A program made the translations under genes and the position numbers. This document shows positions 11,354 to 49,551 of a stretch of DNA of 64,000 nucleotides, piece by piece. This DNA comes from an uncultured virus (IMG/VR IMGVR_UViG_3300036045_000006) (Duplodnaviria > Heunggongvirae > Uroviricota > Caudoviricetes), in the IMG/VR virus record IMGVR_UViG_3300036045_000006; one strand, 5' to 3'. Within the stretch, counting starts at the first letter, position 1. The number at the start of each line of letters is the position of its first letter. The notes under the pieces were generated by a model that was not told the DNA's origin, did no database searches, and was given only the letters and a program-made list of their open reading frames with translations.

Positions 11354-11937
11354 CGCATGGCCTCAACGCTGCTATCATTCAGGCTCTATTATAGAGAACA
11401 TTTGACCTATATCCAAAGCGATTAAAATATCCCAAAATCATTTCGTATAATTCGCATTGTGCGAAGTAATCCGTATACACATGGTTTATAACGTTGTGTT
11501 ACGCAAATCAGCGAATGAAGAAACGTCCCAGAACGCGCAAATTTCGATAGCGCGTAGGATGATACGTCTTGCAAAAATAAATCGCGTGGCGCGTTTCCTG
11601 GCGCGTCGGGTGCGATACTTTGTGATCAATCAACGCATTTTACTAGAACATAAATTCTGTAAAAACCGAACGTCCGTTCTTGCAGGAATCGCGTCCTGGC
11701 GCGTCCTGGCTCATGAACAGATGTTCTAAAGAATTGCCCAATCAGGTAAGCGCATTCTCTATAGAATTTGTGAGCGTGTTGACTGTTCGGTTATAGAACT
11801 CGGCCTCGTCAGAAAGCGTTAACATAATGGGTTATCTCAATGAATTGTCAACGATCTGAGGGGAAGTACAACCTCGATTAACTCTCACATCGGCCTTAAT
11901 GCTTTTCCTCGCATAAACTATAGTAATATGGTACAAT
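11354..11937. promoter_or_regulatory. AT-rich divergent control region between late (packaging) and early genes, with four LexA-type boxes
   Basis: TATAAT on - at 11388-11393. Boxes at 11396-11407 (GAACATTTGACC, 2 mismatches), 11646-11657 (GAACATAAATTC), 11668-11679 (GAACGTCCGTTC, perfect) and 11715-11726 (GAACAGATGTTC, perfect). Confidence 0.75.
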
Positions 11938-12005
11938 TTAATTGTCAGTGGATCACTGACCGGCGCGCGCGGCGCAATTCCCGCGTATGCAAGGAGTCTT
12001 GTATC

Positions 12006-12584
12006 ATGTCCAACGTCCCTACCCTGAAGGCACTTTTTAATCGGATCGGAATCGCAGTGGCAGCGGCGGAGGAAAGCGAGGACGTCATACGCGCCGTCCT
12101 CACTCCGGTTCAGTTCACCAAAATGCGGGCGATGATCAAAAGCGCCCGGCTGATCGATATTGACGGGGCCAAAGTGATCGCCTACTGCGATCCGGCGGAA
12201 TTAAAGACGCTGGCGGCAGCCGGTCTTAAAGCGCCTCGCAGCGCAATCGAGGCCGACATTACCAGCCGAACGATTTACACCATCGATGCGCCCAACGCCA
12301 CCAACCTGATCACCGGCGCAACCTGGGATAGCAGCGCCAACGCCGGGCGTGGTGCGGGCCAGATTTACATCAACACCGGGGCCGTCACCATCCAGGTGGG
12401 ACGGGCCGAGGAATTTTACGAAATCAAGCCGGATGGCGACCCGGATCGACCGGTCTACTTCGTTGATGTGCTGCTGGCGGCAGATGATGAACGCGATCAG
12501 GAAGCGCTGGTGGTCTCAGCCTACGGCCTGACAAACCTGTTTCGTCGTCTGACTTCACTGCGCCGGACGATCATCGTCCAGTAG
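12006..12584 (+). CDS. Hypothetical early protein
   Basis: RBS AAGGAG before ATG 12006; followed by a GC hairpin at about 12592-12620. Confidence 0.65.
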   Translation: MSNVPTLKALFNRIGIAVAAAEESEDVIRAVLTPVQFTKMRAMIKSARLIDIDGAKVIAYCDPAELKTLAAAGLKAPRSAIEADITSRTIYTIDAPNATNLITGATWDSSANAGRGAGQIYINTGAVTIQVGRAEEFYEIKPDGDPDRPVYFVDVLLAADDERDQEALVVSAYGLTNLFRRLTSLRRTIIVQ

Positions 12585-12883
12585 ACAAAATGGGGGCGGG
12601 GCCTCATCTGCCCTGCCCCCTTGATGGACAACGAAACAACAACCGCATCAGATCGTATCCGCCGGGGCTGGCAGCCGTCAACCCCGGCTTTAACGATCAG
12701 CACGCAGAAGGTCGCGTGCGAAAACCGGCCCATCCAGCCGCGCGCATCCGCGTTATTCCGCATATCTTTCAAATCGCATTACACCTCACAGCCTGAAATC
12801 CTGTGCTTATCCCAGACCCGCCGCCCCGAAATCCCGCGCTATCGCACACACGTTCCAAAATCCCGCCGTCGCGCGCCGTTGGC

Positions 12884-12912
12884 TTGACTTATCTATAGTA
12901 ATATAGTACACT
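12884..12912 (+). promoter_or_regulatory. Sigma70 promoter with CTATAG-AATAT operator (family A)
   Basis: TTGACT-17-TACACT; the spacer motif is shared with 11918-11937 and 14380-14399. Confidence 0.8.
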
Positions 12913-12953
12913 TCTCGCGTCACATCAAATCACACGAAGGAGCGTCCATCTCC

Positions 12954-13856
12954 ATGGCGCCATTCCGCTTCGAGAATTACACCACCGGCGACGGCCTGCC
13001 GGCGTTGTCCAGCGAACTCCATATCCGCGACATGCCGGCCACCCGCGTCGACTTTCCTGAGGACCTGCGCAACCGGGCACAGCGCGCGTCACGCATCATC
13101 GCCGACAGCCTCAGTGAGCTGGTCGAGCGGATCCGCCTGGTGCGCGATCTGCCGGTCGGCGCAAGTCTGGACCCGCGCAAACGGCACGCCGTCGGCATCG
13201 GTCTGCGCCAGGGGTCGATTGATGTCGAGGTGATCCGGCCTTACCAGCGCAAAACGCTGAGCCTCGACCTGCCGCGCGTTGGCATCGTGGCATCTGCCGG
13301 TGTCAACGAGGTCAACAGTGATCCGGGCTTCATCGCGCGGATCACGATGCTGACGATCGCCGTCACCTGGGCGTGCGAGATCATCGGCGCGGAAGTCACC
13401 GCCGCGCTGACAGAGGGGCATATCCGGCAGGGGCAGAAACCCATGTGGAACCGGTTCGCGCTTCGATCAGCAAGCGTGCAGCGCGCGCAGCTGGCCTTCA
13501 TCCTGCACGAGCCGGGGCAGTTCACGCCGCTCCAGTGTTACGCGGTCGCCCTGGACCGTGATGAATTTTACAGCAGCGGTTTTGCCGGAGCCTACCGCCG
13601 CGACCCACGCGCTGCCGAAGTCATGGGCAGTCTGCAGGGCCAGCGCCGGGCGCGCTGGGAATCGGCGCATCTCAGTGTGGACGGCGGACACGCGGTCGAC
13701 TGGGCGCGCAGCCGGTGGGACTGCGACCTGGTCGTCGCCATCGGCAAGGTGGCCGATCCGAGCGCCGCCGACATCGTTTTGGAGAACGATTTTACTGTCG
13801 AGCAGGCCTGCACCTCGATCGCGCAGCAGGCTGCTGGCATGATGCAGCGCACCTGA
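12954..13856 (+). CDS. Putative vWA-like partner of the MoxR-type ATPase
   Basis: RBS GAAGGAG; GASLDP...PYQRK followed by a beta-alpha pattern as in CobT/vWA-type proteins; no clear MIDAS motif. Confidence 0.45.
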   Translation: MAPFRFENYTTGDGLPALSSELHIRDMPATRVDFPEDLRNRAQRASRIIADSLSELVERIRLVRDLPVGASLDPRKRHAVGIGLRQGSIDVEVIRPYQRKTLSLDLPRVGIVASAGVNEVNSDPGFIARITMLTIAVTWACEIIGAEVTAALTEGHIRQGQKPMWNRFALRSASVQRAQLAFILHEPGQFTPLQCYAVALDRDEFYSSGFAGAYRRDPRAAEVMGSLQGQRRARWESAHLSVDGGHAVDWARSRWDCDLVVAIGKVADPSAADIVLENDFTVEQACTSIAQQAAGMMQRT

Positions 13857-13874
13857 AAAAAAAAGAGAGGTCAA

Positions 13875-14102
13875 ATGAAAACACTGTACAGCGCCCAGGA
13901 AGCGATCCGCTATCTGGGCACGTCTCAGGGAACGTTCTATAAATGGCTGAACGATGAATCGATGCCCCTGTACGGGGAAATCGTCACCAACAGCCGCATC
14001 TTCCGACGTGAAGAGCTGGACGCCTTTATCGCGTTCCGGGAGGCCAATCCGGATCGCTTCGGAAGCGGTCGCCGGAGCCGCGCCCAGAAGGCCGGCGAGT
14101 AA
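13875..14102 (+). CDS. Small helix-turn-helix protein (excisionase/MerR-like)
   Basis: LYSAQEAIRYLGTSQGTFYKW...RIFRREELDAF. Confidence 0.8.
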   Translation: MKTLYSAQEAIRYLGTSQGTFYKWLNDESMPLYGEIVTNSRIFRREELDAFIAFREANPDRFGSGRRSRAQKAGE

Positions 14103-14370
14103 GCGTCTCGACATCGACGACGGTTACCGACTCATAGCGAATGCCGCCCTGCTCGCAGTCCAGGCGCGCGATCGACACGATCCACTGACCCGCATCGTCG
14201 TGGAGGCGTACCCACTCGATCGCCCCGAACTGCTGCTCGGCGGCGGCTTCCGCGTCCTCCACAAAATCATAGTGCTCCGAAAAGCCTTCCCAGTCGCCGT
14301 CAGGCGTCTGGCCGCAGTAAGCCAGCTGCACCGGATTAAAATTCGGCTCCATCCAGTTTTCCTTTCAGGC

Positions 14371-14399
14371 TTGACACATCTATAGCAATATGCTATACT
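14371..14399 (+). promoter_or_regulatory. Sigma70 promoter with palindromic operator TATAGCA-ATA-TGCTATA (family A)
   Basis: TTGACA 14371-14376, 17-nt spacer, TATACT 14394-14399. Confidence 0.85.
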
Positions 14400-14441
14400 T
14401 CTTTATGTCGCACGAAATCACACACAGGAAAGGTCATCCCC

Positions 14442-14729
14442 ATGATCGCCAATGCTGCTCTGAACGTCAAGTCTCTGTCTGTCGAAGACCTCGACGCTAT
14501 GGACGCCGACGCCCTGCTGTCCTCTCTGCGCCAGGTCGCCATCTATTACCAGGAGGGTCAGGCCGTGCCCGCAAACGCCTGGTACATTCGCGGCGACCTC
14601 TACATCCGCGTGGACATCACCCATCGTCTTACGGTCTGGTACACCTTTATCGACCTGGGAACGCTGGAACACTTCAGCGAAACCCGGCTCGATCGTGCGG
14701 CGCGCATCCTGCGTCTGGCGCTGGATTGA
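14442..14729 (+). CDS. Hypothetical protein
   Basis: Follows the promoter and an AGGAAAGG RBS. Confidence 0.6.
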   Translation: MIANAALNVKSLSVEDLDAMDADALLSSLRQVAIYYQEGQAVPANAWYIRGDLYIRVDITHRLTVWYTFIDLGTLEHFSETRLDRAARILRLALD

Positions 14730-14754
14730 CAAAATAATTATTTACTGACATAAT
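14726..14754 (+). promoter_or_regulatory. Sigma70 promoter with AAATAATTATTT operator (family B)
   Basis: TTGACA-17-CATAAT; the same core recurs at 38503-38531. Confidence 0.8.
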
Positions 14755-14772
14755 GTTTGCTAGGAGCAGAAT

Positions 14773-15933
14773 ATGGCGATCATTGCACACCAAATCGGCA
14801 AAAACTGGGTCATTCCGGCCAACGACCACACCTACGCGCACCGTCAGACGCTGGCGCAGTATGGCGGTCGCTACTCGAAGGCCACTAAGTCCTGGACGTT
14901 CTACGTGAGTCTGCCGGAGCAGGTGCGCGATCTTTGCACAAGCATTGAGACTGCCAGTTTTGAGACTGCCAGCAACAAGCAGTCGATCGACGACCTGATC
15001 GACGCGTTCATGAGCCAGAACAACGTGGACGAGGTGCTCACGATCCAGGTGTCCGACATCGCGCCCAAAGCGCCGATCTACATCGTCGATATGGACGCGC
15101 TTCCTAAATGGTTCAGCCCTCACTCCTGGTGGGATCGGCTCAACCTGTACATCGCCCGACGCCCGTCAACCTCGATTGTCGGCCCAACCGGTAACGGCAA
15201 AACCACCATGGCCGAAATGGCGCTGCGGGCGCAGGCCTTTGACTACGAGATGATTTCCTGCACGGATCAGACCACCGTCACCGACCTGGTCGGCGGACTG
15301 ATCCTTCGCGCCAGCGGCGAGGAATGGATCGACGGCATCATCACCCGCTGCTTCCGGGCGGGCAAGGGCATCATCCTCGACGAAGCCGATGCGCTTGACC
15401 CGCGCGTCGGCCTGGCGATGCAGAACGCGCTGCAGGATCCCGGGCCGGACGGCCGAGGGCGCTATGTGTCCCTGCCCACCGGTGAACGGGTCTACCCGAC
15501 CGGGAAATGCCCGATCGTCCAGACCTGGAACACGTTCGGCACCGGCGCCACACGCCAGTACGTCGGCCGCAACAAGCTGGATGCCGCCTCGGTGGATCGC
15601 ACCAGCATTTTGTTCACCCGGTACGAGAACGAGGACTCGATCCTCACCGGGCGCGGTGTGTCCGCCGACCTCACCCACCGGCTCGTGACCTGGGCGCAGG
15701 CCGTCCGCGCCAAAATCGACGCCGCCGGGCTGCCGATCTCCCTCAGCCCGCGCACGCTGCTGCGCATCGCCGAAGGCGTTCAGGATTTTGACTGGACGCT
15801 GCCGATGGCCTGCGAATTTGAATTTTACGAACGGATCAGTCCCGACCAGGTCGGCGAGATTCGCGTTGACCCCGTGTCCACAGAACGCGGGACGGCTTCG
15901 GATATTCATTCATCCTTTTCCTGGAAGAAGTAA
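14773..15933 (+). CDS. MoxR/CbbQ/CobS-type AAA+ ATPase
   Basis: Walker A IVGPTGNGKTT, Walker B IILDEAD, YVGRNKLDAASVDR, sensor ISLSPRTL. Confidence 0.9.
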   Translation: MAIIAHQIGKNWVIPANDHTYAHRQTLAQYGGRYSKATKSWTFYVSLPEQVRDLCTSIETASFETASNKQSIDDLIDAFMSQNNVDEVLTIQVSDIAPKAPIYIVDMDALPKWFSPHSWWDRLNLYIARRPSTSIVGPTGNGKTTMAEMALRAQAFDYEMISCTDQTTVTDLVGGLILRASGEEWIDGIITRCFRAGKGIILDEADALDPRVGLAMQNALQDPGPDGRGRYVSLPTGERVYPTGKCPIVQTWNTFGTGATRQYVGRNKLDAASVDRTSILFTRYENEDSILTGRGVSADLTHRLVTWAQAVRAKIDAAGLPISLSPRTLLRIAEGVQDFDWTLPMACEFEFYERISPDQVGEIRVDPVSTERGTASDIHSSFSWKK

Positions 15934-15944
15934 GGAGTTTGCAG

Positions 15945-16637
15945 ATGACCGCGCTTGAAGTTCTCTACCAAAAGGCCGTGAACCACATCCAGGCCAAAAC
16001 CCTGCTCCGGATGGCCCTGTTTAACGCCACCCGCGACCTCGAACACGCCCGTAGCGGCGAACGCCTGGCCCGCACCGACCTGAAGGCCATCGATGAGATG
16101 GAAGGCGACGTTCGCGAAGGCGCCAACTGGGCGACAGCCAGACAGGACACCGTCCAGGCGCTGAACGCGATCCAGGATCAAATTCGCGCGCTGGAAGCGC
16201 AGATCCGCCAGCTCGAAAACAAGCTGGCGGAGGGCGATTTGCTCTCAAGCCGGCTGGTCGAAACCATCCTCATGCGCCGGGCGCAGATCGCAGCCGATCA
16301 CGCCGAGACCGCCAAACGCTGGAAGAAGGAGGCCAACAAGGCCGATCTGCCCGGCTGGCTGAAGGGCAAAATCATCAAGGCCGCCGCCCAACTCCGCGAC
16401 GAGGCGGAAACGGCGAAGAAGGCGATCGCCGCGCAGCACGCGGTCTCGATCGAATTACACGGCAAGATCGTCAAAAACAACGTCAAGCTGATCAGCCAGA
16501 GCAAAAACAGCGCGCAGATCGTGATCTGCGTTAACGGCAAGTCCTACACACGACACGTCCGGGTCGAAGCCGGCAAATACGTCGGCAACGGCATCCTGGC
16601 CGGGCTGGGCCGCGTCGAATACGGGGTGGCAGGCTGA
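15945..16637 (+). CDS. Coiled-coil hypothetical protein
   Basis: RBS TAAGGAG; heptad-rich sequence. Confidence 0.65.
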   Translation: MTALEVLYQKAVNHIQAKTLLRMALFNATRDLEHARSGERLARTDLKAIDEMEGDVREGANWATARQDTVQALNAIQDQIRALEAQIRQLENKLAEGDLLSSRLVETILMRRAQIAADHAETAKRWKKEANKADLPGWLKGKIIKAAAQLRDEAETAKKAIAAQHAVSIELHGKIVKNNVKLISQSKNSAQIVICVNGKSYTRHVRVEAGKYVGNGILAGLGRVEYGVAG

Positions 16638-16924
16638 TGGCAAGCTATACCATCAAAGTGCAGGATGATCTCCTTTCCCTGGCTGATGTGCGCCGCAAGC
16701 TCGAAGCCTTCGCCGAATTGTACGGGTCTTCGGAGATCGTCATTCGCGGGAAATGCCTGCAAGCGGAACGAGGCCAGGTATTTCCGTTCAATGGCGTTGC
16801 TGTTGCCGCCATCGGACGGAAATACCTACACATCATCGTAGACGGCGAATCGGATCGTATAGCGTTTGACTTCAACCCCGATCACGGCGTCGAGGAAATC
16901 ACCTTTATTAGTAAGGAGGCATGA
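16637..16924 (+). CDS. Hypothetical protein
   Basis: TGATG coupling to the upstream gene. Confidence 0.6.
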   Translation: MASYTIKVQDDLLSLADVRRKLEAFAELYGSSEIVIRGKCLQAERGQVFPFNGVAVAAIGRKYLHIIVDGESDRIAFDFNPDHGVEEITFISKEA

Positions 16925-17319
16925 TGAGCATTTCGAGCTTTCAACGTTACAAAGGGGACGTTTTACTCGAAAAACGTGACGAAACGAGGGAGGTCACTTT
17001 CCAGATTGACGAATGGACAGTGATTATCAATCAAAACATCCGCCGGGAATATGTTAACGGTAGACAGGAGAGCCAGAAGACCGCTGGGCTGAACATCACC
17101 CTATTTAAAGATGACTACCATTTGAAGGGTTACCTGGAGTTTGATGACAAGCGGTCTTACAGGCCCCGCTTTTGGTGGAAAATCAATCCGGTTAAGCGTC
17201 GGCAATACGATCCGGCCAAAATCTCCGACCTGCTCGATAAGGTCTGGGCCTTTTGGCAAAGCCCGGAATGTCAGCGCATGATGCTGAAACAGACCATTGA
17301 AAAGCTGAAGGCGAAATGA
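16921..17319 (+). CDS. Hypothetical protein (lower GC)
   Basis: RBS AAGGAGG; ATGA overlap. Confidence 0.6.
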   Translation: MMSISSFQRYKGDVLLEKRDETREVTFQIDEWTVIINQNIRREYVNGRQESQKTAGLNITLFKDDYHLKGYLEFDDKRSYRPRFWWKINPVKRRQYDPAKISDLLDKVWAFWQSPECQRMMLKQTIEKLKAK

Positions 17320-17572
17320 GGTCGCTCCGGGAACAACTGAACCTGCTTTTCGATTGGCAAGCCCTTCTAAAGGTCGAACTGGCGGCACTCGCGGAGACCA
17401 CTCCATGACCCGCAAACAGCGCAACTACGAGGCGCGACAGAAACGCCGCGCTGCCAACGCGCAGGGCTACCCGAAAACTCCGACCCTGTCGCTGCGTCCG
17501 GGAACGGTCGCCCAGACCGCACTCTGGGCGCGCGCCATGCGCTTCATGGCGAATGATTAGGAGGATCGTGCC

Positions 17573-18118
17573 TTGAATCTCAATGACTATCAGATGGAGG
17601 CGGGTAAAACCGCCATCTACCCGGAAGAGGGCGAAGGCTCACCGGCTGCCCTCGCCTATACCGCCCTTGGCCTGACCGGTGAAGCCGGCGAGGTCGCCAA
17701 CAAGGTCAAAAAGCTCCTGCGCGATGGCGACCAGCCCGAACTGCGCCAGGCCATCATCGACGAACTGGGTGACGTGCTGTGGTACGTCGCCATGACCGCG
17801 CACGAACTCGCGATCCCACTGGATGAGGTCGCGGCGCGCAACCTGGACAAGCTCCAGCAGCGCCAGCAGACCGGGACGATCGGCGGCAGCGGCGATCAGC
17901 GCGAAGTCCCAGCTGCCAAAAGCCTGCACGCATTCAAGGTCGGCGACCGGGTACGTGTAGAGATTTACAGCCATCGGCACGCCAACCGCACGGGCACGAA
18001 TATTGACGTCAGCAGCGTCTATCCAGGCGCGTGGCGGGTTCAGTTCGATGACGATGGCTCGTGGTTAAGTTTTTACAGCCACGAGATCACTGCCCTTGGC
18101 GCTGAGGCTGATGCCTAA
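17573..18118 (+). CDS. MazG-like NTP pyrophosphohydrolase with a C-terminal SH3/KOW-like domain
   Basis: LGLTGEAGEVANKVKK...DELGDVLWYV...NLDKL; tail FKVGDRVRV. Confidence 0.9.
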   Translation: MNLNDYQMEAGKTAIYPEEGEGSPAALAYTALGLTGEAGEVANKVKKLLRDGDQPELRQAIIDELGDVLWYVAMTAHELAIPLDEVAARNLDKLQQRQQTGTIGGSGDQREVPAAKSLHAFKVGDRVRVEIYSHRHANRTGTNIDVSSVYPGAWRVQFDDDGSWLSFYSHEITALGAEADA

Positions 18119-18431
18119 CATCATCCCCTACATCAAGCGCCAACCCGGCGACCCGGCCCTGGTGGAGAAAATCCACCGGGCGACGGGCGGGGTAACAGGG
18201 GTGTGGCGTGTATACCTCGAATATCTCAGCGAACAAAGGACGTTCGTCCTCAAATATGCGCAGCAGGAAGGCAAGCGCCGCGTATACGATCACTTCCTGC
18301 TGGAAGAAACCGAGGCGCGGGAACTGACACCCCACGCCATCACCCACCGCTACGTCAACAAGGTGTACGGGATCACCAGCGGCGATCCCGAGTTCGACGC
18401 CGAAACCGAATGGGAGGAGATACCATTTTGA
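18111..18431 (+). CDS. Hypothetical protein with SSB-like acidic tail
   Basis: Ends ...DAETEWEEIPF. Confidence 0.6.
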   Translation: MPNIIPYIKRQPGDPALVEKIHRATGGVTGVWRVYLEYLSEQRTFVLKYAQQEGKRRVYDHFLLEETEARELTPHAITHRYVNKVYGITSGDPEFDAETEWEEIPF

Positions 18432-18793
18432 ATACCGACTCAACTAAAAAGCTCTCCGACCTGATCGAGAGCGCCATCCCGCACGCGCATTCGCTTGAAC
18501 TGGCGATCGCGCCCGGCACGTTTGTCGATTACGACGACGACGGTAAACCCTGCTCGGTGTGCCTAATGACGGCCTGCGCCGTCGCTCTGGGCGAACCCAT
18601 CCACGACGACGAGGATCACATCCACTCCTGGGTGCCGTACACCCTGCTTAAGCACGGGTACAACATCCTGGTCACGGTCAATGTGCCTGGCGTGCGGGCG
18701 ATGTGGTTGTTTGACGCGGTGCTGCACCTGTATGACACCCGCGGCTACTCGCCGGAGGACGTGATCGCCTGGCTGCGGGAGCGCGGGCTGTGA
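18428..18793 (+). CDS. Hypothetical protein
   Basis: TTG start overlapping the upstream TGA; RBS GGAGGAG. Confidence 0.55.
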   Translation: MNTDSTKKLSDLIESAIPHAHSLELAIAPGTFVDYDDDGKPCSVCLMTACAVALGEPIHDDEDHIHSWVPYTLLKHGYNILVTVNVPGVRAMWLFDAVLHLYDTRGYSPEDVIAWLRERGL

Positions 18794-19001
18794 CCGCCCC
18801 TACCGAGCAGATGATTCGCCAGGTCGAAGCCCTGATCCGCGGCGAGGAGGCCGATTTCGCGCCTCTGGTCCTGGCCGACTTCGATGAAGGCCGGGAAGAC
18901 CTGGACGAGCAGAACACCGTCCGCTACTGCATGCGGTGGCTGCACCTCTATGGCCGTGTCCCGCGCAACGCCGACATCGCGCCGGTGCAGTGGGCCTGCT
19001 G

Positions 19002-19259
19002 ATGCCGAACCTCAGCCGCACCGAACAGCGCCTGATCTGGCACGTCCTGTACATGCAGGAAGCCCACGGCCAGCACGTCACCCAGGCCGCCATCGCGCGC
19101 TATCTGCGCGTCACCCGGCCCACGGCGCATTACTACGTCCACAAGCTGGCAGGGCGCGGACTGCTGACTATCCAGCATGTGCCCGGTCATCGTCCCGTCA
19201 TCGAGATTAACCCTACGGGCTTCAAAAACGAAAGGCTTGCGAATTTATGCACACGCTGA
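19002..19259 (+). CDS. Winged HTH protein resembling the LexA DNA-binding domain, without a peptidase domain
   Basis: LSRTEQRLIWHV...HGQHVTQAAIARYLRVTRPTAHYYVHKLAGRGLL. Confidence 0.7.
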   Translation: MPNLSRTEQRLIWHVLYMQEAHGQHVTQAAIARYLRVTRPTAHYYVHKLAGRGLLTIQHVPGHRPVIEINPTGFKNERLANLCTR

Positions 19260-19503
19260 ATGATCTGATCTGGTCGAGCGACACCAATGAAGTGCGCGCC
19301 GGGCTGCTGATCGCGCACGCGATCAACAAAAAGCGCGCCCGGGAAACTACAGTGGTCAAGGACGTGGCTGCTTATACCAAGCGCGCCGCCAATGCCATTG
19401 GTGCGCTGGAAGGCGAGTATGAGGATCGTAACGTCGTCCTCGAAGACCTGCGCGAAATCTTCGGCATGCGCATGAAACGCGCCCCCCACACTGGAAGAAA
19501 GTA

Positions 19504-19521
19504 GAACAGGTGTGCTAAAAT
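19504..19521 (+). promoter_or_regulatory. LexA-type box abutting a -10 element
   Basis: GAACAGGTGTGC 19504-19515, then TAAAAT 19516-19521. Confidence 0.6.
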
Positions 19522-19527
19522 TGACGA

Positions 19528-19681
19528 TGTGTGTACCCTTCAGCCCGGCGGTTTACCTCCCCGCCGGGCACCGCGACAACCAACAGCAGGGACGGCGCTC
19601 CTCCGCTTTCCACCCGATCCACCTCTGCCAGACCTCCATGTGCGTTTCCCTTGATTGCCCATCGCCGTCCCTGTTTGTTTC
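19528..19681 (+). ncRNA. Candidate small RNA with two stems and CU-rich anti-SD loops
   Basis: Stem 19543-19551/19561-19569 with loop TTTACCTCC; stem ~19582-19597/19663-19679 enclosing a 65-nt pyrimidine-rich loop; T-rich end. Confidence 0.5.
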
Positions 19682-20376
19682 AGGAATGATCCCGTGACCA
19701 GATCGACCAGCGAATTCAACCGAAAATCCTGGCGCGAACTGGAACCCAGCCAGAGGCTGATCATCCGCCTTCAGATCGCAGCGGGCCGCGCCATGCTGCG
19801 GATGCTCAGGCCCCTGCTCAACAATTTATACAACAAGCTATCCAGCCTTAAGGAGTACCCTATGCCCGGTCCGGTATCAGACAGCCACGACCCCGAATTC
19901 GGCACAAACGCCAACGCAGCCGCAATCGCCGATGGCATCGAAGAAGTGATCGAGCGGATCAGCCAGCATCTCGGCAGCGAACTCAAGGACATCGTGGAGG
20001 TGGCCCTCGGCGACGATGGACCGGAATGCACACTCACACTCACAGAGCGCCAGCTCCGGCTGATCCGCTTCGGTCTGCGCCGCGCGCTGGAAAGTCTTTA
20101 ACATGAACCAGACTGACATCATGCACACTCTGCTGCTGGCCCTGGCACGATGACCGACACGGATCCCGAGACGGACATGGACACCCGCCGCGCCGCGGGC
20201 CGCTTCGTGGATAGCGTCATCAAAAGTATTGGCGACGACGAAGGCTTTCAAGGCCGGATTAAACTTCTGTCGCTGATCAAGGGGGATACCTCGTTCGAGG
20301 TCATCATCAAAATCCGCGTTATCGACGCCGCCGAGCAGATGCCCGGTAGCCTTCAGGTACAGTAGGAGACTATCGC

Positions 20377-20823
20377 ATGGGACTCTTGGATCAAATCACA
20401 AAGCTTTACGATGAGCTTAAACAAGCCATCACCACGGACGAAGAACTGAACGCCCGCATGGCCTTGTTTTTTGGAAGCGCCGATTTCGAACCCGGTCGGT
20501 CCGATGACCTGCTGTATAGGTTTTACCACCTCCTGGGCCTGATCGTGCAGCAGAATCAGCCTCCAAAGCCAGGCCCCGCGCTTCCTAAGCCCGAAAGAAA
20601 ACTGGTCGAGGTGCTTGACACGCTGAAGCTGCCGATGACTACAAAGCTGATGTTAGGCGCCTACTTTCCCGGCGCAATCGAGTGGCTGAAGGAAGTCGCT
20701 GGAGAATTCGGCCAGGTTATAGACACCACTCAAGGCCCGTACATCATGATCCTCAACCTCGAGCTGGGGTACGACGCCAATCAGGTGATCCAGTACCTGA
20801 CCAGCTACACGGAGCCGTCATGA
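20377..20823 (+). CDS. Hypothetical protein
   Basis: RBS AGGAG; last large ORF in a run of small genes before the terminator. Confidence 0.6.
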   Translation: MGLLDQITKLYDELKQAITTDEELNARMALFFGSADFEPGRSDDLLYRFYHLLGLIVQQNQPPKPGPALPKPERKLVEVLDTLKLPMTTKLMLGAYFPGAIEWLKEVAGEFGQVIDTTQGPYIMILNLELGYDANQVIQYLTSYTEPS

Positions 20824-20925
20824 CGCCATGCACCTGCGGCCACCCGTTCGCCAGATTCGACCCGGCCATCGATGACTACGTGTGCGAAAAATGCGGCGAA
20901 TGCGCCGGAACCGGGTACATCGTAT

Positions 20926-20959
20926 AAAAGCCTCCCCCCCTGTTATTGGGGGGATTTTC
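20926..20959 (+). terminator. Intrinsic terminator
   Basis: C-run/G-run stem followed by TTTT. Confidence 0.55.
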
Positions 20960-20973
20960 ATAAGCCCTATCGC

Positions 20974-21019
20974 TTGACAACTAAATTTAGTTGAGGTACA
21001 CTGTAACTAAGTTTAGTTA
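20974..21019 (+). promoter_or_regulatory. Sigma70 promoter with two palindromic operators (family C)
   Basis: TTGACA-17-TACACT; CAACTAAATTTAGTTG 20978-20993 and TAACTAAGTTTAGTTA 21004-21019. Confidence 0.85.
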
Positions 21020-21035
21020 ACACGAGGTCACACAC

Positions 21036-21743
21036 ATGAACACAGAGGCCGTCCGCACCGAAATCAAAAGCATCATCAGCGCGCTGCACAAGCAGCTTGG
21101 CAAGTTTGCGCGGAAGCAGTATCCGGTTGCTAAGTGGCAGGTCGAACGCCTCACGGCGCTTGGCATTATCGACCTGATGCCGAGTGGCTACGGCCATTCT
21201 GACGCTGCCCAAATCATCAAAGCAGCGGAAGACGCTGCTCGTCGAATTTGGGATGGCGGCGATGAATTTGGCGATTACGAAAATTATCCGGGATCGTCAC
21301 TCTGGCAGCTGCTCAACCAGCCTGTCGCGTCCGAACCGACCCCGGAAGCTGTTGCTGAACTGCCCGGCGCGGACGCGGCGCCATTCCCGGCAGCACACCA
21401 GGCGCACAGCGAATTCTGGCCGTATGGTGGCCACCGCTTTGATGCGTCGTGGGTAGCGCAGTCCCGCGCTGCACGCGAGCGACGTGAGCGCGAAGCCAAT
21501 GAGCGCCGGTGGCCGGTGCTGCGCCTGGCGCGCGAACTGGCCGAAGCCACCGGCGCGGATCAGGAAACGCACACTCGCTACCAAGTAGCGGTGGCGCTGC
21601 TGGACGATGCGCGGCACGGCGGCCTCTCGCCGGAAGGACGTCAGGCATATCTACAGGTCAGCGATGCGCTGAAAACCACACCAGCCGACTTGACTGAACT
21701 GCGCGCTCTGGTTGTCCGGATCGCAGACGAAGCGGGGGTCTAA
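21036..21743 (+). CDS. Hypothetical protein
   Basis: First gene after the family C promoter. Confidence 0.65.
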   Translation: MNTEAVRTEIKSIISALHKQLGKFARKQYPVAKWQVERLTALGIIDLMPSGYGHSDAAQIIKAAEDAARRIWDGGDEFGDYENYPGSSLWQLLNQPVASEPTPEAVAELPGADAAPFPAAHQAHSEFWPYGGHRFDASWVAQSRAARERREREANERRWPVLRLARELAEATGADQETHTRYQVAVALLDDARHGGLSPEGRQAYLQVSDALKTTPADLTELRALVVRIADEAGV

Positions 21744-21744
21744 G

Positions 21745-22725
21745 ATGTACGCATACGTGGCATCGTTCAGCGAATTCAGCGAGATGATCACTTCCACCGG
21801 TCTGGTCATTCGCGAGATCGAGCAGCCGGGCGGCACGACCACCTACACAGTGGTTGACCGCGACATCGCCAATGTCGATTATTGGATCGAGGACAACTGG
21901 GGCGACGCTGACAACACCGAAGTCAGCGACGAGGAGCTGGCGCGCTGGCTCCGTGAAGTCGGCGAGGAACTGCCCGCGGTCCCGGTGCTCCCGGCCAATT
22001 TGATCTTCATCAACCGCGACGAGCGGTATGGGGACGCCGTGCCGGGTACGCTGGAGCAGTACCAGACGTTGAACCCCGACGGTCAGTTTGACGCCCGTGC
22101 CGACGGGCTGTATGAAAAAGTAGGCGGTCGCTGGACCATGATCGCGGACGCGATCGACCGCCCGACGGACGGCCAGCTGGTCGAGGCCTGGATGCGTCAG
22201 TCTCCGCCACGGAGCCTGACTGAGGACGACGTGACCTATGCCCGGATGGCGGAAAACGTCATGTCGAACTACTTCAATCACGGTAGCGATTTTGAACTGG
22301 ACGAGGTGATTGGCTACCTCGCTGATGTCCATAAAAGCTACAATGCGCTTCTTGGACAGGTGAAACGGGGCTTTGCCGTGCTGGCCGGCTTCCTGCTTGT
22401 GCGTGGCGATCGCCAGTCAACCTGGAACGGATTCGATGTCCCGCAGGAAGCCGTCATCTGGAAGATTTATCCTGCGGGCTATAAGGCCACTGCCGAGCAG
22501 CACCAACTCTACTATCTAGTGAAGCCGGGTGATCTGATCACAGTCACCGAAGCGGCTAACCGGGTGTTCGGCAGCAGCGAACAGAAGCATATCGTTCGCA
22601 TGAGCCAGTTTATCCGCGATGGCCGCGTGCAGGTCTTCATCGACCGCGCCGAGCGCAATAGCCAGCGCAACAAACGTCTCAGCGCGATCGAAGTCGATCG
22701 CCTTCGCAAGTGGTACTACGCCTAA
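21745..22725 (+). CDS. Hypothetical protein with a probable C-terminal HTH
   Basis: C-terminal LITVTEAANRVFG...MSQFIRDGRV. Confidence 0.6.
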   Translation: MYAYVASFSEFSEMITSTGLVIREIEQPGGTTTYTVVDRDIANVDYWIEDNWGDADNTEVSDEELARWLREVGEELPAVPVLPANLIFINRDERYGDAVPGTLEQYQTLNPDGQFDARADGLYEKVGGRWTMIADAIDRPTDGQLVEAWMRQSPPRSLTEDDVTYARMAENVMSNYFNHGSDFELDEVIGYLADVHKSYNALLGQVKRGFAVLAGFLLVRGDRQSTWNGFDVPQEAVIWKIYPAGYKATAEQHQLYYLVKPGDLITVTEAANRVFGSSEQKHIVRMSQFIRDGRVQVFIDRAERNSQRNKRLSAIEVDRLRKWYYA

Positions 22726-22727
22726 TC

Positions 22728-23888
22728 ATGAGCATCCTCGACGACTTCGCCAACCCAGCGCTGACCGCCGACCAAGCGGTCGCGCTGGTCTATCACCAGC
22801 CCGCTTTGTGCTGGACCGCAGAGACCGCGTGGATCGCGTCTCGCACCGGGCACACGATTGTGATGGGCGGCATGGGCATCCAGGACATGATCCTGGACGT
22901 TCGGCATCCCGGTATGCGCAACCTGATCGAGGCGGTCAGGATCGCCCGCGAGATGCCGCCCAAAACCTGGCGCGGCCTGGATGTGCGTCACGTGCAGGAT
23001 GGTGCGTTTGAAGCCCTCGCTTCTCTGGATGCCGCCTCCGGTCTGCTCAGCCAGGAGGTATTCGACTTCCTGACGTTTCGGGATCGCCCCGGCGCGAAGT
23101 GCGACGTTGGCGTGCCCCTGGGCTTGGTACACATCAAACCGGACAACACGGTTTCGATCAGCGTCGATCGAATGCTGGGGCTGGATGTCGAGCAGTCCCG
23201 GCTGGCGCTGGCATTCGCAGACACGCTGGTGCAGGAAGCGGAGCCGCACCGCCACCGGCTGCCAATCGGCACGTACATCATGGAGCCGGTCCGGATCGAC
23301 GCCATCGACCGGGACCTGATCTGGGACGCGCTCCGGATCGTCCTGTCGCCTACTGGCATTCTCGCGTCATTTGTCAGCGAGAGCGAAGGATTTTACGCGC
23401 CCGTCTTCTGGACGCCGGAAGGTGTCACCACCGCGCAGGTCCACACCAGCGCGACGGCGGCCATCGCCATTACGGTGATGCTCTCGGCGCTTTGGCGCGA
23501 CGCCTGTGTCGTCAAAGAAGAATGGCGCGAACAGCAGGCACGCCGCCCGCTGGAGATGAAACGCGCATCATCCAGCGGCAAACCTAAACCGGGCGCGCTC
23601 GTCCTGCCTCGCAAAATTGTTCACATCCGATGGTCGCAGCGCGCCGAGCGGGAGTATATCGAACGCCGGGCGCATGGCGTTCGCGGATTTTATAGAGCGC
23701 TCACAGTCTCGGAGACTGCGCCTGCTGAAGCAGCCGATCGCGCGCAGCAGTTCGGTTACCCGCCGCCGCCGATCGGATACACATTCGTGCGTCCGCATAC
23801 GCGGGGACGCGGTGACGGCGACCATGAACCCGTGCGGCGGATCGTCTGCCGCGGCCTGCAAAGCCTGAAAATTGCTTTAGGGATATAA
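22728..23888 (+). CDS. Phage hypothetical protein with C-terminal HxVRG motif
   Basis: HGVRGFYR...FVRPHTRG, a motif I recall from uncharacterised phage proteins. Confidence 0.6.
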   Translation: MSILDDFANPALTADQAVALVYHQPALCWTAETAWIASRTGHTIVMGGMGIQDMILDVRHPGMRNLIEAVRIAREMPPKTWRGLDVRHVQDGAFEALASLDAASGLLSQEVFDFLTFRDRPGAKCDVGVPLGLVHIKPDNTVSISVDRMLGLDVEQSRLALAFADTLVQEAEPHRHRLPIGTYIMEPVRIDAIDRDLIWDALRIVLSPTGILASFVSESEGFYAPVFWTPEGVTTAQVHTSATAAIAITVMLSALWRDACVVKEEWREQQARRPLEMKRASSSGKPKPGALVLPRKIVHIRWSQRAEREYIERRAHGVRGFYRALTVSETAPAEAADRAQQFGYPPPPIGYTFVRPHTRGRGDGDHEPVRRIVCRGLQSLKIALGI

Positions 23889-23905
23889 TACGTTCAGGAG
23901 GCCCT

Positions 23906-24268
23906 ATGAAGCCACGAACCCTGATACTCCTGGCCATTACCCTGATCGCCGCGCTGGCCGCGTTTGCCATCGGCATGTCGCAGTCCCAGCAGAGCGCGAT
24001 CCCCACGCTGGCTGATCTCGAAGCGCTCACCGCACCGACCGACACCCTCACACCCACGCTGACGCTGACCGCCAGCCCCATGCCCAGCCGAACACCAACC
24101 GAAGCGCCCAGGCCAACACGGCGGCCGCAGGTGTCGTCCTGTCCATCCAGCAGCCCGACCTGCGGATCGCTCTCGTCGTGCAGTCAGGCCCGCGCCTGTT
24201 TGGCTGCTGGTCATCGCCATCTCGATCGCGATCGGGATGGTATTCCTTGCGAAAGCCTGTGCGGATAA
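23906..24268 (+). CDS. Exported Excalibur calcium-binding domain protein
   Basis: Signal/TM segment, Pro/Thr linker, TCGSLSSCSQARAC...LDRDRDGIPCESLC. Confidence 0.85.
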   Translation: MKPRTLILLAITLIAALAAFAIGMSQSQQSAIPTLADLEALTAPTDTLTPTLTLTASPMPSRTPTEAPRPTRRPQVSSCPSSSPTCGSLSSCSQARACLAAGHRHLDRDRDGIPCESLCG

Positions 24269-24299
24269 AAAAAGCCCCGACATCAGCCGGGGCTTCTTA
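24266..24299. terminator. Bidirectional terminator between convergent genes
   Basis: AAGCCCCG 24272-24279 / CGGGGCTT 24288-24295, flanked by A- and T-rich tracts. Confidence 0.8.
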
Positions 24300-25844
24300 T
24301 CCCATCCTCTTCATCGTGTCGATCAGCCGATCAACATCCAGGTCGGGGAACTTCTTCTGCAGAACGTGACGGCCGACAAGGCTGTACGTCCACTTGCCAT
24401 ACACATTTTGGTATTCGATCAGGCCCAGCTCGGCCAGGTTTTTCGGTCGATGCTTCGCCAGCGTCGTGCTGCTCACCCCAATAAAACGTGCCATTTCATT
24501 CTCGTTGAATGTGCTGGTCGGATGCTTCGCCAGCAGCGCCAGAACGCGACGGTGAGAGGGCGGCGTCCCGCGCACCGTCGCCATCAGTCCATCAAACACC
24601 TTCTGCTGATGACGACGCGCCCGCTCGTCTGCGATCGGGGTCCGATACGGCGCCTCCGGATCAACGGGTGCAGCGACAGGCGCTGCACTTGCCTGCGCGT
24701 GGGCACTGTTGACCGGCGCAGCCACGGGTGCAGATGCAGACGACGGTAGAGAGGTCACCAGCTGCGCAGCCTCGATGCGTTCTGTCTGGAGTATCGTCGG
24801 CAGCTGCATCTCGACCGAGAGCTTGAACGCGCTGAGCATCTCGATCTGAGACCGCATCTGCTCGGCCTGGGCTTCCAGTTCAGCCACCCGCGCGGCGTGC
24901 GCCTCGCGTTCTCTGGCCTGCGCTTCCTGGAGCTGCCGGATCTGCTGGCGCAGCTGATCCGCCTCGCTGATGGGAGCGCTCGACATCTTCAGCGCCTCGA
25001 ACATCGCCGGGTCGATCGGGCGCAGCGGCGATGACCGGATCACCGGCTGCGCGTTTTCAGACGACGTGAATGCCGGACGGATCTGCACGGTCAGATATTC
25101 CTCGCCACCGATCCACTCCTCTGTGCCGATTACCAGCGCCTGACCGCGCGGCGCTTTCTTCACTTTGGAAAGCAGTTCCTTATCGCTGAAGGGCGTCATC
25201 TTCGCAAATGGTGCCACGTCGTGCGTCGCCCAAACGCTATGAAGGACAAAAGCGCTCGTTTGGTTAAACACGTCCTTGGTCAGGCTGGCCGGACGCTGCG
25301 TCGCCACCAGCAGGCTCAGGCCGGTGAAGCGTCCGCGTTTGGCGATATCGATCAGCAGTTCGCTGGTCGGCGTCACGGTCGTCTGCGGCGCGAATTCGTG
25401 CGCCTCGTCGATCAGCAGCACGTATGGCTGCGCCGGCTCCGTCCTGAACTGGACATCCCACAGCGCGTCAAGATAGGCGGCCAGCACCGTCTGACGCTCC
25501 GGGTTCGTGTCCGTGTCCTTGTACCAGGACAGATCGAGCACGGCGCACAGCCGGTCGCGCGCGCAGAGGCGGCCCAGCTCGGCAGCATTGTCGACGGTGA
25601 TCTCGAAGTGGGACAGCGCCCGGCGTCCGACGTGAAGCACGGGCAGATCATCCTTGAGGCGATCAGCCTGCCGGTTCGGGTCGATGAATGTGAAGGGGAT
25701 GCCCGCGGCCGCCAGTTCCTGCGCGATCACCAGCAGCGTGTTGGTCTTGCCACTGCCACTGCGTCCGATAATCGTCAGGCGTTGGCCCTCCTTCTGGAAG
25801 ACCTCGGCGGTTGGGCAGAACGTGCCGTTCAGATCAAGGTGCAT
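24297..25844 (-). CDS. HerA/FtsK-superfamily ATPase with coiled coil and C-terminal HTH
   Basis: IIGRSGSGKT, LLIDEAHEFAPQ, IAKRGRFTGLSLLVATQRPA. Confidence 0.88.
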   Translation of the reverse strand: MHLDLNGTFCPTAEVFQKEGQRLTIIGRSGSGKTNTLLVIAQELAAAGIPFTFIDPNRQADRLKDDLPVLHVGRRALSHFEITVDNAAELGRLCARDRLCAVLDLSWYKDTDTNPERQTVLAAYLDALWDVQFRTEPAQPYVLLIDEAHEFAPQTTVTPTSELLIDIAKRGRFTGLSLLVATQRPASLTKDVFNQTSAFVLHSVWATHDVAPFAKMTPFSDKELLSKVKKAPRGQALVIGTEEWIGGEEYLTVQIRPAFTSSENAQPVIRSSPLRPIDPAMFEALKMSSAPISEADQLRQQIRQLQEAQAREREAHAARVAELEAQAEQMRSQIEMLSAFKLSVEMQLPTILQTERIEAAQLVTSLPSSASAPVAAPVNSAHAQASAAPVAAPVDPEAPYRTPIADERARRHQQKVFDGLMATVRGTPPSHRRVLALLAKHPTSTFNENEMARFIGVSSTTLAKHRPKNLAELGLIEYQNVYGKWTYSLVGRHVLQKKFPDLDVDRLIDTMKRMG

Positions 25845-25851
25845 TCGTCTA

Positions 25852-26472
25852 TTATACTCGAACAGCTTCCCGCTTGCCGGTCACCGGGTTGATCCAGATG
25901 AGATGGTTCTTTGTTGTCCATTCAATCGTGAAGTCGCCGCGTCGATAGACGCCACGATGTCCGGCAATCTCAGCCTGTGGGACAAACACGATGGGCAAAT
26001 CCCAGACATCGAGCTTATCGATCGGTCGCCCCTGCGTGATGCGCGGGGGCACCGTGCGAAGATTGAACGGCGTCCTGACGGTCATCAGATCGATCAGGAG
26101 GCCCGCCGAGATCATCAGCTGGTCATCTCGCTTGGTCGCGAAGGGCGGTGAATTCTGCCAGACGTGCCGATTGACAAACTGTATCAGCGTATCCAGTTTC
26201 CGTCGCACAAACCTGGCAGGCACGACATCCCAGTCCAGCGCCGGGTCGTCGCGTCTCTTAAATCTCCTCCAAATGATGAAAGAGTCCTCGCCGTTAGCCT
26301 CCAGCCAGGACTGTGGAAACGTATGGGCAAAGTGAATTACATCAAGGAAGTTGTAGGTTCTGTTATATATGCCGTAGCCGATCACTTTGATCGGGTCGCC
26401 ATCCGGCATGTCATAGGTCACCCATACGGGGTCTGCTGATAACTTTGGATCAGGGTTGTTCATCGCGGTCAT
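25852..26472 (-). CDS. Hypothetical protein
   Basis: ATG 26472 preceded by a purine-rich RBS. Confidence 0.6.
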   Translation of the reverse strand: MTAMNNPDPKLSADPVWVTYDMPDGDPIKVIGYGIYNRTYNFLDVIHFAHTFPQSWLEANGEDSFIIWRRFKRRDDPALDWDVVPARFVRRKLDTLIQFVNRHVWQNSPPFATKRDDQLMISAGLLIDLMTVRTPFNLRTVPPRITQGRPIDKLDVWDLPIVFVPQAEIAGHRGVYRRGDFTIEWTTKNHLIWINPVTGKREAVRV

Positions 26473-29090: not shown

Positions 29091-29936
29091 TTACACTTTG
29101 CGCTCTAATGAGAGATAGATCACCTCGCCGGCCGCCAGGTCAAAGTTCCCGCGCGCCAGCTTCAGCGTGACCGTATCGCCGTCGGCATCATCCACCACCA
29201 CCGCTTTCCAGCGCCCCATGATCGACACGAAACTGGACTGCTTCGCCTCATAGGCGACCTGGTTCAGATGTTCGCGCAGATCGCGCCCGCGCAGTTCCTC
29301 GACCGGAACAACCTGCGTGCCCTGCAGGTGACCGGTATGTACGATCACCTCCAGTTGATCCGGGTCGCGCCGTGCCAGCTCGTCCAGCACCAGCGCCGCC
29401 TCCGGATCACTCACCCGGGTTTCGGCCAGTGTGCGCACCTGCTCGGACTGGATGCGGGGAAGGGCGGCGATCAGACCTTCCGCCTGCGGGGTCGTCAGTT
29501 CACGCCGGACCACCCGGTCCCGGATAGCGGGCGGCGCATCACGCAGGACCGTGGCCGTGCGCTGATCCACCATCTGCGTGGACGACAGCGCGCTGGCTGC
29601 CTGGATCGCGTCGGCCGACGTTGACTTGGCCGTCAGCGCGTACAGCGCCGTCTTCGTAAAATTCGCAAGGTTTGCGGATTCAGGATCGAACCGCCGGGCG
29701 ATCGCCATCAGATAATTTGCCATCCGGGTCTGACCCCGAAAATCGGTTCGTTCACTCCGCAGTCCCACCTGATCGCGCAGATATGCGCCCCAGGCGATGT
29801 CCTGCGCCTTGCATAGGGTTTTGGCCTCCAGGAGATTCCGGCCTGCCTCATACAGATCGCGGATGCTCCGATCCAGCCGCTGCCGGGTGTCCTCAGCCAG
29901 CCAAGCCAGCCGAGCCGTTTCGATGTCGGCGCTCAC
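29091..29936 (-). CDS. DUF3102-like hypothetical protein
   Basis: YEAGRNLLEAK...WGAYL...MANYLMAIARRF...TALYALT pattern. Confidence 0.55.
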   Translation of the reverse strand: MSADIETARLAWLAEDTRQRLDRSIRDLYEAGRNLLEAKTLCKAQDIAWGAYLRDQVGLRSERTDFRGQTRMANYLMAIARRFDPESANLANFTKTALYALTAKSTSADAIQAASALSSTQMVDQRTATVLRDAPPAIRDRVVRRELTTPQAEGLIAALPRIQSEQVRTLAETRVSDPEAALVLDELARRDPDQLEVIVHTGHLQGTQVVPVEELRGRDLREHLNQVAYEAKQSSFVSIMGRWKAVVVDDADGDTVTLKLARGNFDLAAGEVIYLSLERKV

Positions 29937-30136
29937 TCTGAAGCCGCCGACTGCCGCTTCTGGATAATTTCCTCAGCAGCCTTTACCAAATTGGAATCAT
30001 GCGTCTCAGCGAAGCGCCGCAGCGCCTCGCTCATCGACCGCACGCCATACCGACGGCGGAGGATGTTGAGCATTTCGCGAGTGTCTTCCGACAGCTGCAC
30101 GTTGATGTGGCGGTAAGGGCCTTCCTTGTGCGCCAT
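29933..30136 (-). CDS. Small ribbon-helix-helix-type regulator
   Basis: HINVQLSEDTREMLNIL...SMSEALRR. Confidence 0.6.
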   Translation of the reverse strand: MAHKEGPYRHINVQLSEDTREMLNILRRRYGVRSMSEALRRFAETHDSNLVKAAEEIIQKRQSAASE

Positions 30137-38502: not shown

Positions 38503-38531
38503 TTGACAAAATAATTATTTTGCGCGATAAT
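38503..38531 (+). promoter_or_regulatory. Sigma70 promoter with perfect palindrome CAAAATAATTATTTTG (family B)
   Basis: TTGACA-17-GATAAT; palindrome at 38507-38522. Confidence 0.85.
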
Positions 38532-38609
38532 CTCAATGTCGCATCTGTAACAGGGCAGGGGGAGCTTAGTCCCTCCCCCCGCCCGCAGCACGAGCTATGG
38601 AGGTAGCCC

Positions 38610-49505: not shown

Positions 49506-49507
49506 AT

Positions 49508-49540: not shown

Positions 49541-49551
49541 ACGTGCAGCGT

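Follow-up and report, generated by a model that had tools for sequence, protein, structure and literature searches.

In bacteriophage lambda, the '6S' transcript that runs from PR' to tR', under Q antitermination, is a phage leader terminated close behind its promoter. Rho-loading sites look C-rich, G-poor and open; RsaE/RoxS are small RNAs with C-rich loops, and DapZ is a small RNA of the 3'-untranslated-region (3'-UTR) type. Here we analyzed a locus with features of several of these systems, positions 19504-19681 (plus strand) of a stretch from an uncultured member of the Caudoviricetes (IMG/VR record IMGVR_UViG_3300036045_000006); "the window" is this whole stretch of 64,000 nucleotides (nt), a phage-like contig of about 60% G+C. 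A preliminary description had presented the locus as an SOS-inducible small RNA displaying multiple anti-Shine-Dalgarno (anti-SD) motifs. The interpretation that we favor, while rating it somewhat short of even, is an operator-controlled promoter followed by a non-coding structured leader that works as an attenuator, a leaky and conditional terminator ahead of the next three genes. Judged by analogy, the closest counterparts of the locus would be phage promoter-proximal terminated leaders and Rho-dependent attenuators and, if the RNA acts in trans, RNAs of the cuckoo and RNAIII types.

The cuckoo-type group of the Alphaproteobacteria comprises the cuckoo RNAs, RSs0680 (CcsR) and SmelC397 (PMC4615179) and NfeR1 (PMC10746234). 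PMC4615179 describes cuckoo RNAs as two to four hairpins of 24-50 nt side by side, whose loops of 9-27 nt each contain CCUCCUCCC, and Staphylococcus RNAIII as an RNA with UCCC loops; C-rich loops of this kind pair with ribosome-binding sites (RBSs). MicL is a 3'-UTR-type small RNA with its own promoter (PMC4102768). The plasmid-like prophage GIL01 has LexA-controlled promoters with the Bacillus-type consensus CGAAC-N4-GTTCG (PMC4551915, PMC6182141).

The locus and a sister module elsewhere in the window consist of the following elements:

19503..19516, plus strand: operator-like box AGAACAGGTGTGCT, a Cheo/LexA-type palindrome with one mismatch
19513..19521, plus strand: extended -10 element TGCTAAAAT, with TAAAAT at 19516-19521 preceded by TGC; fused to the box
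19527..19529, plus strand: inferred transcription start, 6-8 nt after the -10 element, placed by promoter geometry alone
19543..19569, plus strand: hairpin 1, with perfect, GC-rich 9-nt arms (19543-19551/19561-19569) and the 9-nt loop TTTACCTCC (RNA UUUACCUCC)
19587..19673, plus strand: long-range helix with perfect 11-nt arms (19587-19597/19663-19673), 13-16 pairs in predicted folds, enclosing 65 nt
19598..19662, plus strand: C-rich, G-poor, mostly unpaired strand (A8 C29 G9 T19) that carries CUCCUCC, CCACCUCU, ACCUCCAU and UUUCCC
19674..19680, plus strand: T-tract TTTGTTT, directly after the long helix
59062..59133, minus strand: sister module, with box and TGCTATAAT (59133-59115), terminator hairpin and T6 (59098-59062), RBS, and the ATG (59046) of the tape-measure gene

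The sequence contains what the preliminary description had listed: the LexA-type box with TAAAAT and, as confirmed by direct reading and a repeat search, the 9-bp hairpin, the stem of 11 or more bp around 65 nt and the T-rich end. CTCCTCC, ACCTCT, ACCTCCAT and TTTCCC all lie inside the 65-nt loop.

As in lambda-type leaders, a terminator-like helix stands 50-150 nt past a promoter and is followed by genes without another promoter, in two modules here, at 19503 (plus) and 59120 (minus). In contrast to those leaders, the helix encloses a 65-nt strand, the box is a repressor-type palindrome, and neither a factor nor an RNA like Q, N or put was recognised. With Rho-dependent leader attenuators and rut sites the locus shares a stretch of about 78 nt, rich in C, poor in G and predicted to be unstructured, between promoter and first gene; unlike in rut-site attenuators, this tract is bracketed by a strong helix and then followed by a T-tract. 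Several anti-SD-like pyrimidine motifs in unpaired loops of a short non-coding RNA are a further likeness, in this case to the cuckoo RNAs (PMC4615179). However, CCUCCUCCC is absent, the closest strings being GCUCCUCCG and ACCUCC; hairpin 1 (27 nt, 9-nt loop) fits the dimensions of a cuckoo hairpin, whereas the second element (87 nt, 65-nt loop) does not, and instead of further small hairpins there is a single one, with three motifs sharing one 65-nt loop. With RNAIII-type RNAs the shared idea is that of C-rich loops set against RBSs, but RNAIII presents UCCC in separate hairpins, whereas the motifs here are of the CCUCC type and stand in a strand rich in C and U. As in 3'-UTR-type small RNAs, the promoter lies across the end of the upstream coding region, and one terminator serves the upstream mRNA as well; unlike there, a gene starts 2 nt after the T-tract. 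The candidate 14-bp boxes at phage promoters come near the CGAAC-N4-GTTCG of GIL01; no gp7-like factor was identified in the window.

The box belongs to a family. Counted as the 12-mer GAAC-N4-GTTC with at most one mismatch, such sites are not enriched in the window (29 against 24 expected; 15 of 100 shuffles reach 29), whereas the 14-mer AGAAC-N4-GTTCT is: six sites with at most one mismatch were found against 0.77 expected, a number reached by none of 100 shuffles. Allowing two mismatches gives 20 sites, nine of them in the 9.7% of the window that a crude gene model leaves over as non-coding (P(>=8) = 3e-4). Four AGAAC-N4-GTTCT sites cluster in the large regulatory gap 11354-12005, and the others lie at 19503, 30903, 51851 and 59120. 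The 12-mer core of the 19503 box, GAACAGGTGTGC, departs by one mismatch from GAAC-N4-GTTC. This palindrome equals the Bacillus-type LexA consensus given in PMC4234289 and PMC4551915. The individual palindromes stand at 11395, 11645, 11667, 11714, 19503, 30903, 51851 and 59120, possibly also at 7948, and lie at or beside the -10 elements of most transcription units. Under a leader or a small-RNA reading alike, the AGAAC-N4-GTTCT family is a testable map of the regulatory circuit of the phage.

Box and -10 element are joined in a way that is repeated precisely once. Four boxes adjoin TGnTAnnnT elements, those at 19503, 30903, 51851 (minus) and 59120 (minus), and TGNTAWAAT occurs in only two copies in the window, at 19513 and 59115 (minus), each fused to a box. 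The 19503 module reads AGAACAGGTGTGCTAAAATTGAC and the 59120 module, on the minus strand, AGAACGACTGTGCTATAATTGAG; in both, the palindrome is broken at a single position, and that change supplies the TG of the extended -10 element. The extended -10 pattern TGNTANNNT is depleted window-wide (27 copies against 45.4 +/- 7; all 100 shuffles have at least 27), and those still present are found at likely promoters, among them the ones next to the 30903 and 51851 boxes. This depletion suggests selection against stray promoters of that type. Internal evidence is good for a regulated promoter that would fire rightward from about 19527. The earlier interpretation is supported in part: its regulated-promoter component is backed by the enriched box family and the sister promoter at 59120 (minus), while the 19503 box itself is plausibly an operator for a repressor, either host LexA or a protein of the phage. 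In the sister module, whose extended -10 element is perfect, the terminator hairpin starts about 13 nt after the promoter and is canonical (z-score, z, of -3.26 for its fold). The module places this arrangement of promoter and then terminator in the middle of the tail operon.

Folding predicted both helices of the preliminary description. As RNA, 19528-19681 has a minimum free energy (MFE) of -50.5 kcal/mol and a z of -3.45, and none of 200 shuffles folds as well; this z is flattered, since the ends of the segment were picked from the predicted structure, and the wider 197 nt of the preliminary description give -1.54. The part with the long helix, 19584-19681, has a z of -2.82. The minus strand gives a z of -0.52, and 60 of 200 shuffles fold as well. 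The predicted probability of being unpaired, P(unpaired), is 1.00 in the hairpin-1 loop and averages 0.68 over the 65-nt strand. Perfect inverted repeats are modestly enriched in the window, both with arms of at least 9 nt and loops of 3-12 nt (11 against 4.3 +/- 2.6) and with arms of at least 11 nt and spacers of 13-100 nt (13 against 2.2 +/- 1.9), but two of them within one 190-nt gap by chance is unlikely. A stem-enclosed pyrimidine-rich loop with a T-tail was found only here among the window and 26 related loci. On these predictions, the approximately 150 nt after the promoter are plausibly a non-coding structured RNA.

Read as an attenuated leader, the locus would work as follows. Transcription would start near 19527 when the repressor, host LexA or a phage protein, leaves the box. 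Some polymerases would stop at the helix and T-tract, yielding an RNA of about 154 nt, and others would read through, giving 19694-20823 its only mRNA. The decision element would be the open C-rich strand, a landing pad for Rho (rut-like), a protein or a ribosome, and its binder would set the ratio of stopping to read-through. The terminated RNA may act in trans as well.

Among the features that lead us to favor such a leader, the next open reading frame (ORF) begins with its RBS and GTG just past the T-tract, at the head of three genes without a promoter of their own, and in the sister module at 59120 (minus) a terminator hairpin likewise stands between the promoter and the RBS of a gene. The plus strand of 17253-20720 yielded no sigma-70-type promoter, and that of 14580-26437 no extended -10 element other than the one at 19513; a canonical terminator at 20933-20954 closes the block of three genes at 19694-20823. 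These genes would depend on read-through, because neither kind of promoter was found between the 19513 promoter and 20720. The presumed stop has the stem and U-tract of an intrinsic terminator (11 perfect pairs, 13-16 predicted, then UUUGUUU), but its loop is 65 nt long instead of 3-8 nt, and a terminator scan confined to loops of 3-8 nt does not list the site. A large loop should weaken an intrinsic terminator; weak termination fits, since the loop is far beyond the 3-8 nt of the canonical terminators of this phage. The composition expected of a rut site, with some 70-80 nt in which C is well above G and structure is scarce, is present as well: the 78 nt from 19598 hold 35 C and 12 G, which ranks them among the top 0.05% of the window. 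If the leader reading is true, the phage puts conditional stops behind at least two operator-fused promoters, 19503 and 59120 (minus), one of these stops being unusual in form, a long helix round a Rho-site-like open strand; the locus would then show, in compact form, how a phage of an unstudied lineage layers attenuation on repressor control.

Similar C-rich tracts lie at plus-strand operon ends (24012-24120 and 49441-49547), and a ratio of C to G of at least 3 in 78 nt also occurs at 12723-12874 (plus strand, intergenic). By their composition, these three tracts are possible zones of Rho-dependent termination.

The frames on either side of the leader and within it are:

19247..19504, plus strand: upstream orphan gene of 85 amino acids (aa), codon score 0.458, typical of real genes; its TAG stop (19502-19504) overlaps the box
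19527.., with TGA stop at 19695-19697, plus strand: ATG-opened frame of 56 codons, which would be leaderless; its stop overlaps the GTG at 19694
19682..20101, plus strand: next ORF, of 135 aa, with RBS AGGAA (19682-19686) and GTG at 19694; its last 79 aa are a conserved phage family

Codon scores come from a model trained on 25 confident phage genes. The only database match of the 85-aa gene is itself. The score of the 19527 frame, -0.125, is lower than that of 97% of real in-frame windows and higher than that of 79% of off-frame windows; a 61-aa version of it has no homologue among 1.84 billion representative proteins, nor is it called as a protein in that set, and it has no Pfam match. Neither phage-like codon usage nor homologues were thus found for this frame, and the earlier statement that the region holds no convincing ORF stands, with the nuance that all three plus frames are nearly open, as pyrimidine-rich DNA has few stop codons. 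In the 135-aa ORF, homologues of 79-80 aa align only to the C-terminal 59% (the last 79 aa), which has an ATG at 19862 and the RBS AAGGAG; the 56-codon N-terminal extension is moderately coding-like (codon score 0.145; G+C at third codon positions, GC3, 0.77). The 79-aa family (19862-20101) has an invariant N-terminal MPGPVSDS-DPEFGT and C-terminal RF-L-RALE; the member encoded in the window carries the orphan 56-aa extension as an in-frame fusion. Its coding region contains a perfect 12-nt inverted repeat (19953-19964/20059-20070) with a 93-nt spacer. Folding of 373 nt pairs GUACCCUU (19533-19540), at the 5' end of the predicted transcript, with the RBS AAGGAGUAC (19849-19857) of the 79-aa frame, in the MFE and the centroid structure alike, a predicted pairing that is possibly a further contact in cis.

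Relatives were sought at the level of DNA, protein and RNA family. Neither blastn of 18900-20400 against plasmids and phages nor megablast of 12000-36900 against phages gave a match, IMG/VR scans with the 85-aa, 135-aa, 337-aa and MarR-like proteins returned no relatives, and the exact DNA patterns of hairpin 1 and of the promoter module had no match in IMG/VR. A profile of the 79-aa family retrieved 21 viral and 5 genome loci, where blastn matched only the first bases of the 79-aa gene, not the DNA upstream. The contigs concerned (L001-L026) are 21 viral ones and 5 from metagenome-assembled genomes that carry labels of diverse phyla, and the family always stands in a different gene context. 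When 12 neighbouring window proteins were compared with the related loci, no relative appeared at E <=0.01, and E <=1 gave six matches at chance level. At about 17 of the 26 loci a mechanically defined ORF ends at most 25 nt from the 79-aa gene, so that no comparable gap exists there. Compared in six frames with the related loci, 19505-19861 yielded nothing below E 0.3, and hence no sign of a decayed gene. The Rfam search proposed in the preliminary description was likewise negative: with Rfam 15, 18500-20700 gave three weak, chance-level matches at E <=10, none of them inside 19504-19681, and the whole window gave none at gathering thresholds. On this sequence comparison, the leader RNA belongs to no catalogued RNA family.

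Several of these results weigh against an attenuated leader. No -35 element is recognisable for the 19513 promoter, and a general promoter scan misses it. Pfam and PHROGs scans of about 90 window ORFs recognised no repressor, antiterminator, Rho-related factor or LexA-like protein. Region 19504-19681 had no relatives in the searches above, and its promoter and helices are not backed by conservation. The runs listed with this sequence number four, all recorded as DNA and none as RNA. The composition of the loop is more extreme than a plain leaky terminator needs, and, the 56 N-terminal codons of the next ORF being only moderately coding-like, the leader would grow to 335 nt and change its geometry if they are untranslated.

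That extreme loop is the starting point of another account, possible though rather doubtful in our estimate, in which the product is a small RNA of about 154 nt dedicated to action in trans, whose exposed CCUCC-type motifs would silence SD regions of phage or host at induction. Such an RNA would share the supported promoter and operator, the fold with a z of -3.45 and the layout of 3'-UTR-type small RNAs, in which the promoter overlaps the stop codon of the gene before it and one terminator serves both transcripts. It would display three motifs in the 65-nt loop and a fourth in that of hairpin 1, the CU motifs being predicted to be unpaired (P 0.74-1.0). Four CCTC[CT] motifs in 154 nt are the maximum density of the window on both strands, and a random 9-mer holds CCTCC with P 0.007; the CCTCC of the hairpin-1 loop is a more independent signal than the motifs of the big loop. 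The 65 nt are in the top 0.005% of the window in pyrimidine content, and composition explains most of the big-loop motifs: three CCTC[CT] motifs compare with 1.12 +/- 0.97 in loop shuffles (P 0.09), and overall the big-loop motifs stay near expectation (P 0.09-0.2). Pairing with targets also tells against this account. Phage genes do use strong GGAGG/AGGAG RBSs, and 31 of 84 start regions contain a match to a seed of at least 6 nt, compared with 465 of 2123 internal windows, but this enrichment is circular, since an anti-SD motif matches SDs by construction. Seeds of at least 7 nt (8/84 against 153/2123) and at least 8 nt (3/84 against 46/2123) are not enriched at starts. The target prediction that had been suggested as a check, done here with RNAduplex, did not single out the 84 start regions as preferred partners: energies were no better than for internal windows (P 0.84) and were weaker than for 92% of random 65-mers. 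Multivalent anti-SD silencing, as first proposed, thus found no support in these tests. The complementarity between ACCUCCAU and the RBS ATGGAGGT at 38597-38604 is present, the RBS being that of a 68-aa gene with ATG at 38610, and the accompanying caution that an 8-nt match means little was justified, as no individual candidate target is significant alone. The RBSs of the candidate target genes 38610, 42830 and 45400 share ATGGAGG, and among the matches listed is one of 11 nt, from 19604-19614 to the SD region of 52197-53972 (minus). Separately, a near-consensus promoter, TTGACA-17-GATAAT, and a hairpin precede the 68-aa gene, which encodes a CxxC...CxC protein (38504-38816). A dedicated small RNA would also leave the three downstream genes without a promoter, and it has neither an Rfam match at E <=10 nor relatives, and comes from runs that are all DNA. 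In its boldest form, which we consider unlikely, a phage RNA under damage or repressor control would use one end-to-end helix to hold open a 65-nt mimic of the mRNA-docking tail of the ribosome, would show a fourth motif copy in its 5' hairpin loop, and would mask SD sites of many host or phage messages together at induction. If true, such a mimic would be an RNA-based device for shutting off or timing translation that doubles as the leader of the next operon; any true small-RNA reading would mean a phage RNA that imitates the anti-SD tail of the ribosome.

The remaining accounts give the RNA loop no role or a different one. An ordinary operon boundary, quite unlikely in our judgment, would have the helices end the upstream block of about 11928-19504, the box weak or merely restarting transcription, and the loop functionless. 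The helices do stand directly behind the last gene of a long plus-strand block, with a T-tract after the second; inverted repeats are generally enriched in the window, and C-rich tracts recur at other intergenic and operon-end sites. However, the order is promoter, helix and gene rather than terminator and then promoter, the 65-nt loop is unlike the canonical terminators of the phage and extreme in composition, and the box/-10 module is duplicated precisely at 59120 (minus). A leaderless mRNA translated from the ATG at 19527, giving a 56-aa Cys/Pro/Ser-rich peptide with coupling to the GTG at 19694, would profit from the ATG at the inferred start, the stop/start overlap as GTGA and a GC3 of 0.70; the codon score of -0.125, the empty searches for homologues and Pfam domains, and the near-openness of all plus frames, as composition predicts, make it very unlikely. 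Slightly less credible than that would be repeats that act as DNA, the 27-bp palindrome at 19543-19569 and the 11-bp inverted repeat binding a dimeric regulator as a roadblock after the promoter, a scheme that we hold to be highly improbable. A candidate MarR-like winged-helix protein is encoded two genes upstream (18990-19259; MarR_2 E 3.8e-9 for 18936-19259), and the perfect arms of the hairpin-1 palindrome span about +16 to +42 from the inferred start, but no second copy of either palindrome lies near another promoter, with 9-10-mers of the arms scattered in coding DNA among the matches listed; a 65-bp spacer with pyrimidines on one strand would go unexplained, and the T-tract and fold asymmetry favor a plus-strand RNA. 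That asymmetry also bears on a purine-rich RNA from the minus strand, with seven GGA motifs, which would act as a sponge that takes up ribosomes or a CsrA/RsmA-type protein. In such an RNA the loop complement would show GGA/GGAGG in the same stem-held display, with one GGA in the hairpin loop GGAGGUAAA, but there is no promoter-like minus-strand site near 19700-19900 and no T-tract after hairpin 1 on that strand, and, with a z of -0.52 and 60 of 200 shuffles folding as well, we regard it as extremely unlikely.

Turning to the phage itself, the same DNA is present in contigs of four runs from two sediment studies, with no differing letter over the parts covered (two runs leave parts uncovered). 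A metagenome scan returned a single contig (L027), identical to window positions 16694-23098. The DnaB of the window is at most 32% identical to those of deposited phages. Besides the tape-measure protein gene (56020-59046, minus), the window encodes a Dit-like protein and a beta-helix tail fibre, as well as ParA, ParB, DnaB, an O-like initiator, RecT-like and MazG proteins, methyltransferases, and Mom-like and ThiF-like proteins. Its helix-turn-helix (HTH) proteins are encoded at 13875-14102, 18990-19259 and 29933-30136. No S24-type or CI-type repressor was recognised among the window ORFs in the Pfam and PHROGs scans. The window combines the operator family with ParA/ParB, and no CI- or LexA-like repressor was recognised in it; the phage may be a plasmid-like prophage that is held by host LexA, by analogy with GIL01, or by an unrecognised repressor. 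At 45400-46772, a Mom-family gene is immediately preceded by a ThiF-family gene that overlaps it, and the pair may be a DNA-modification module.

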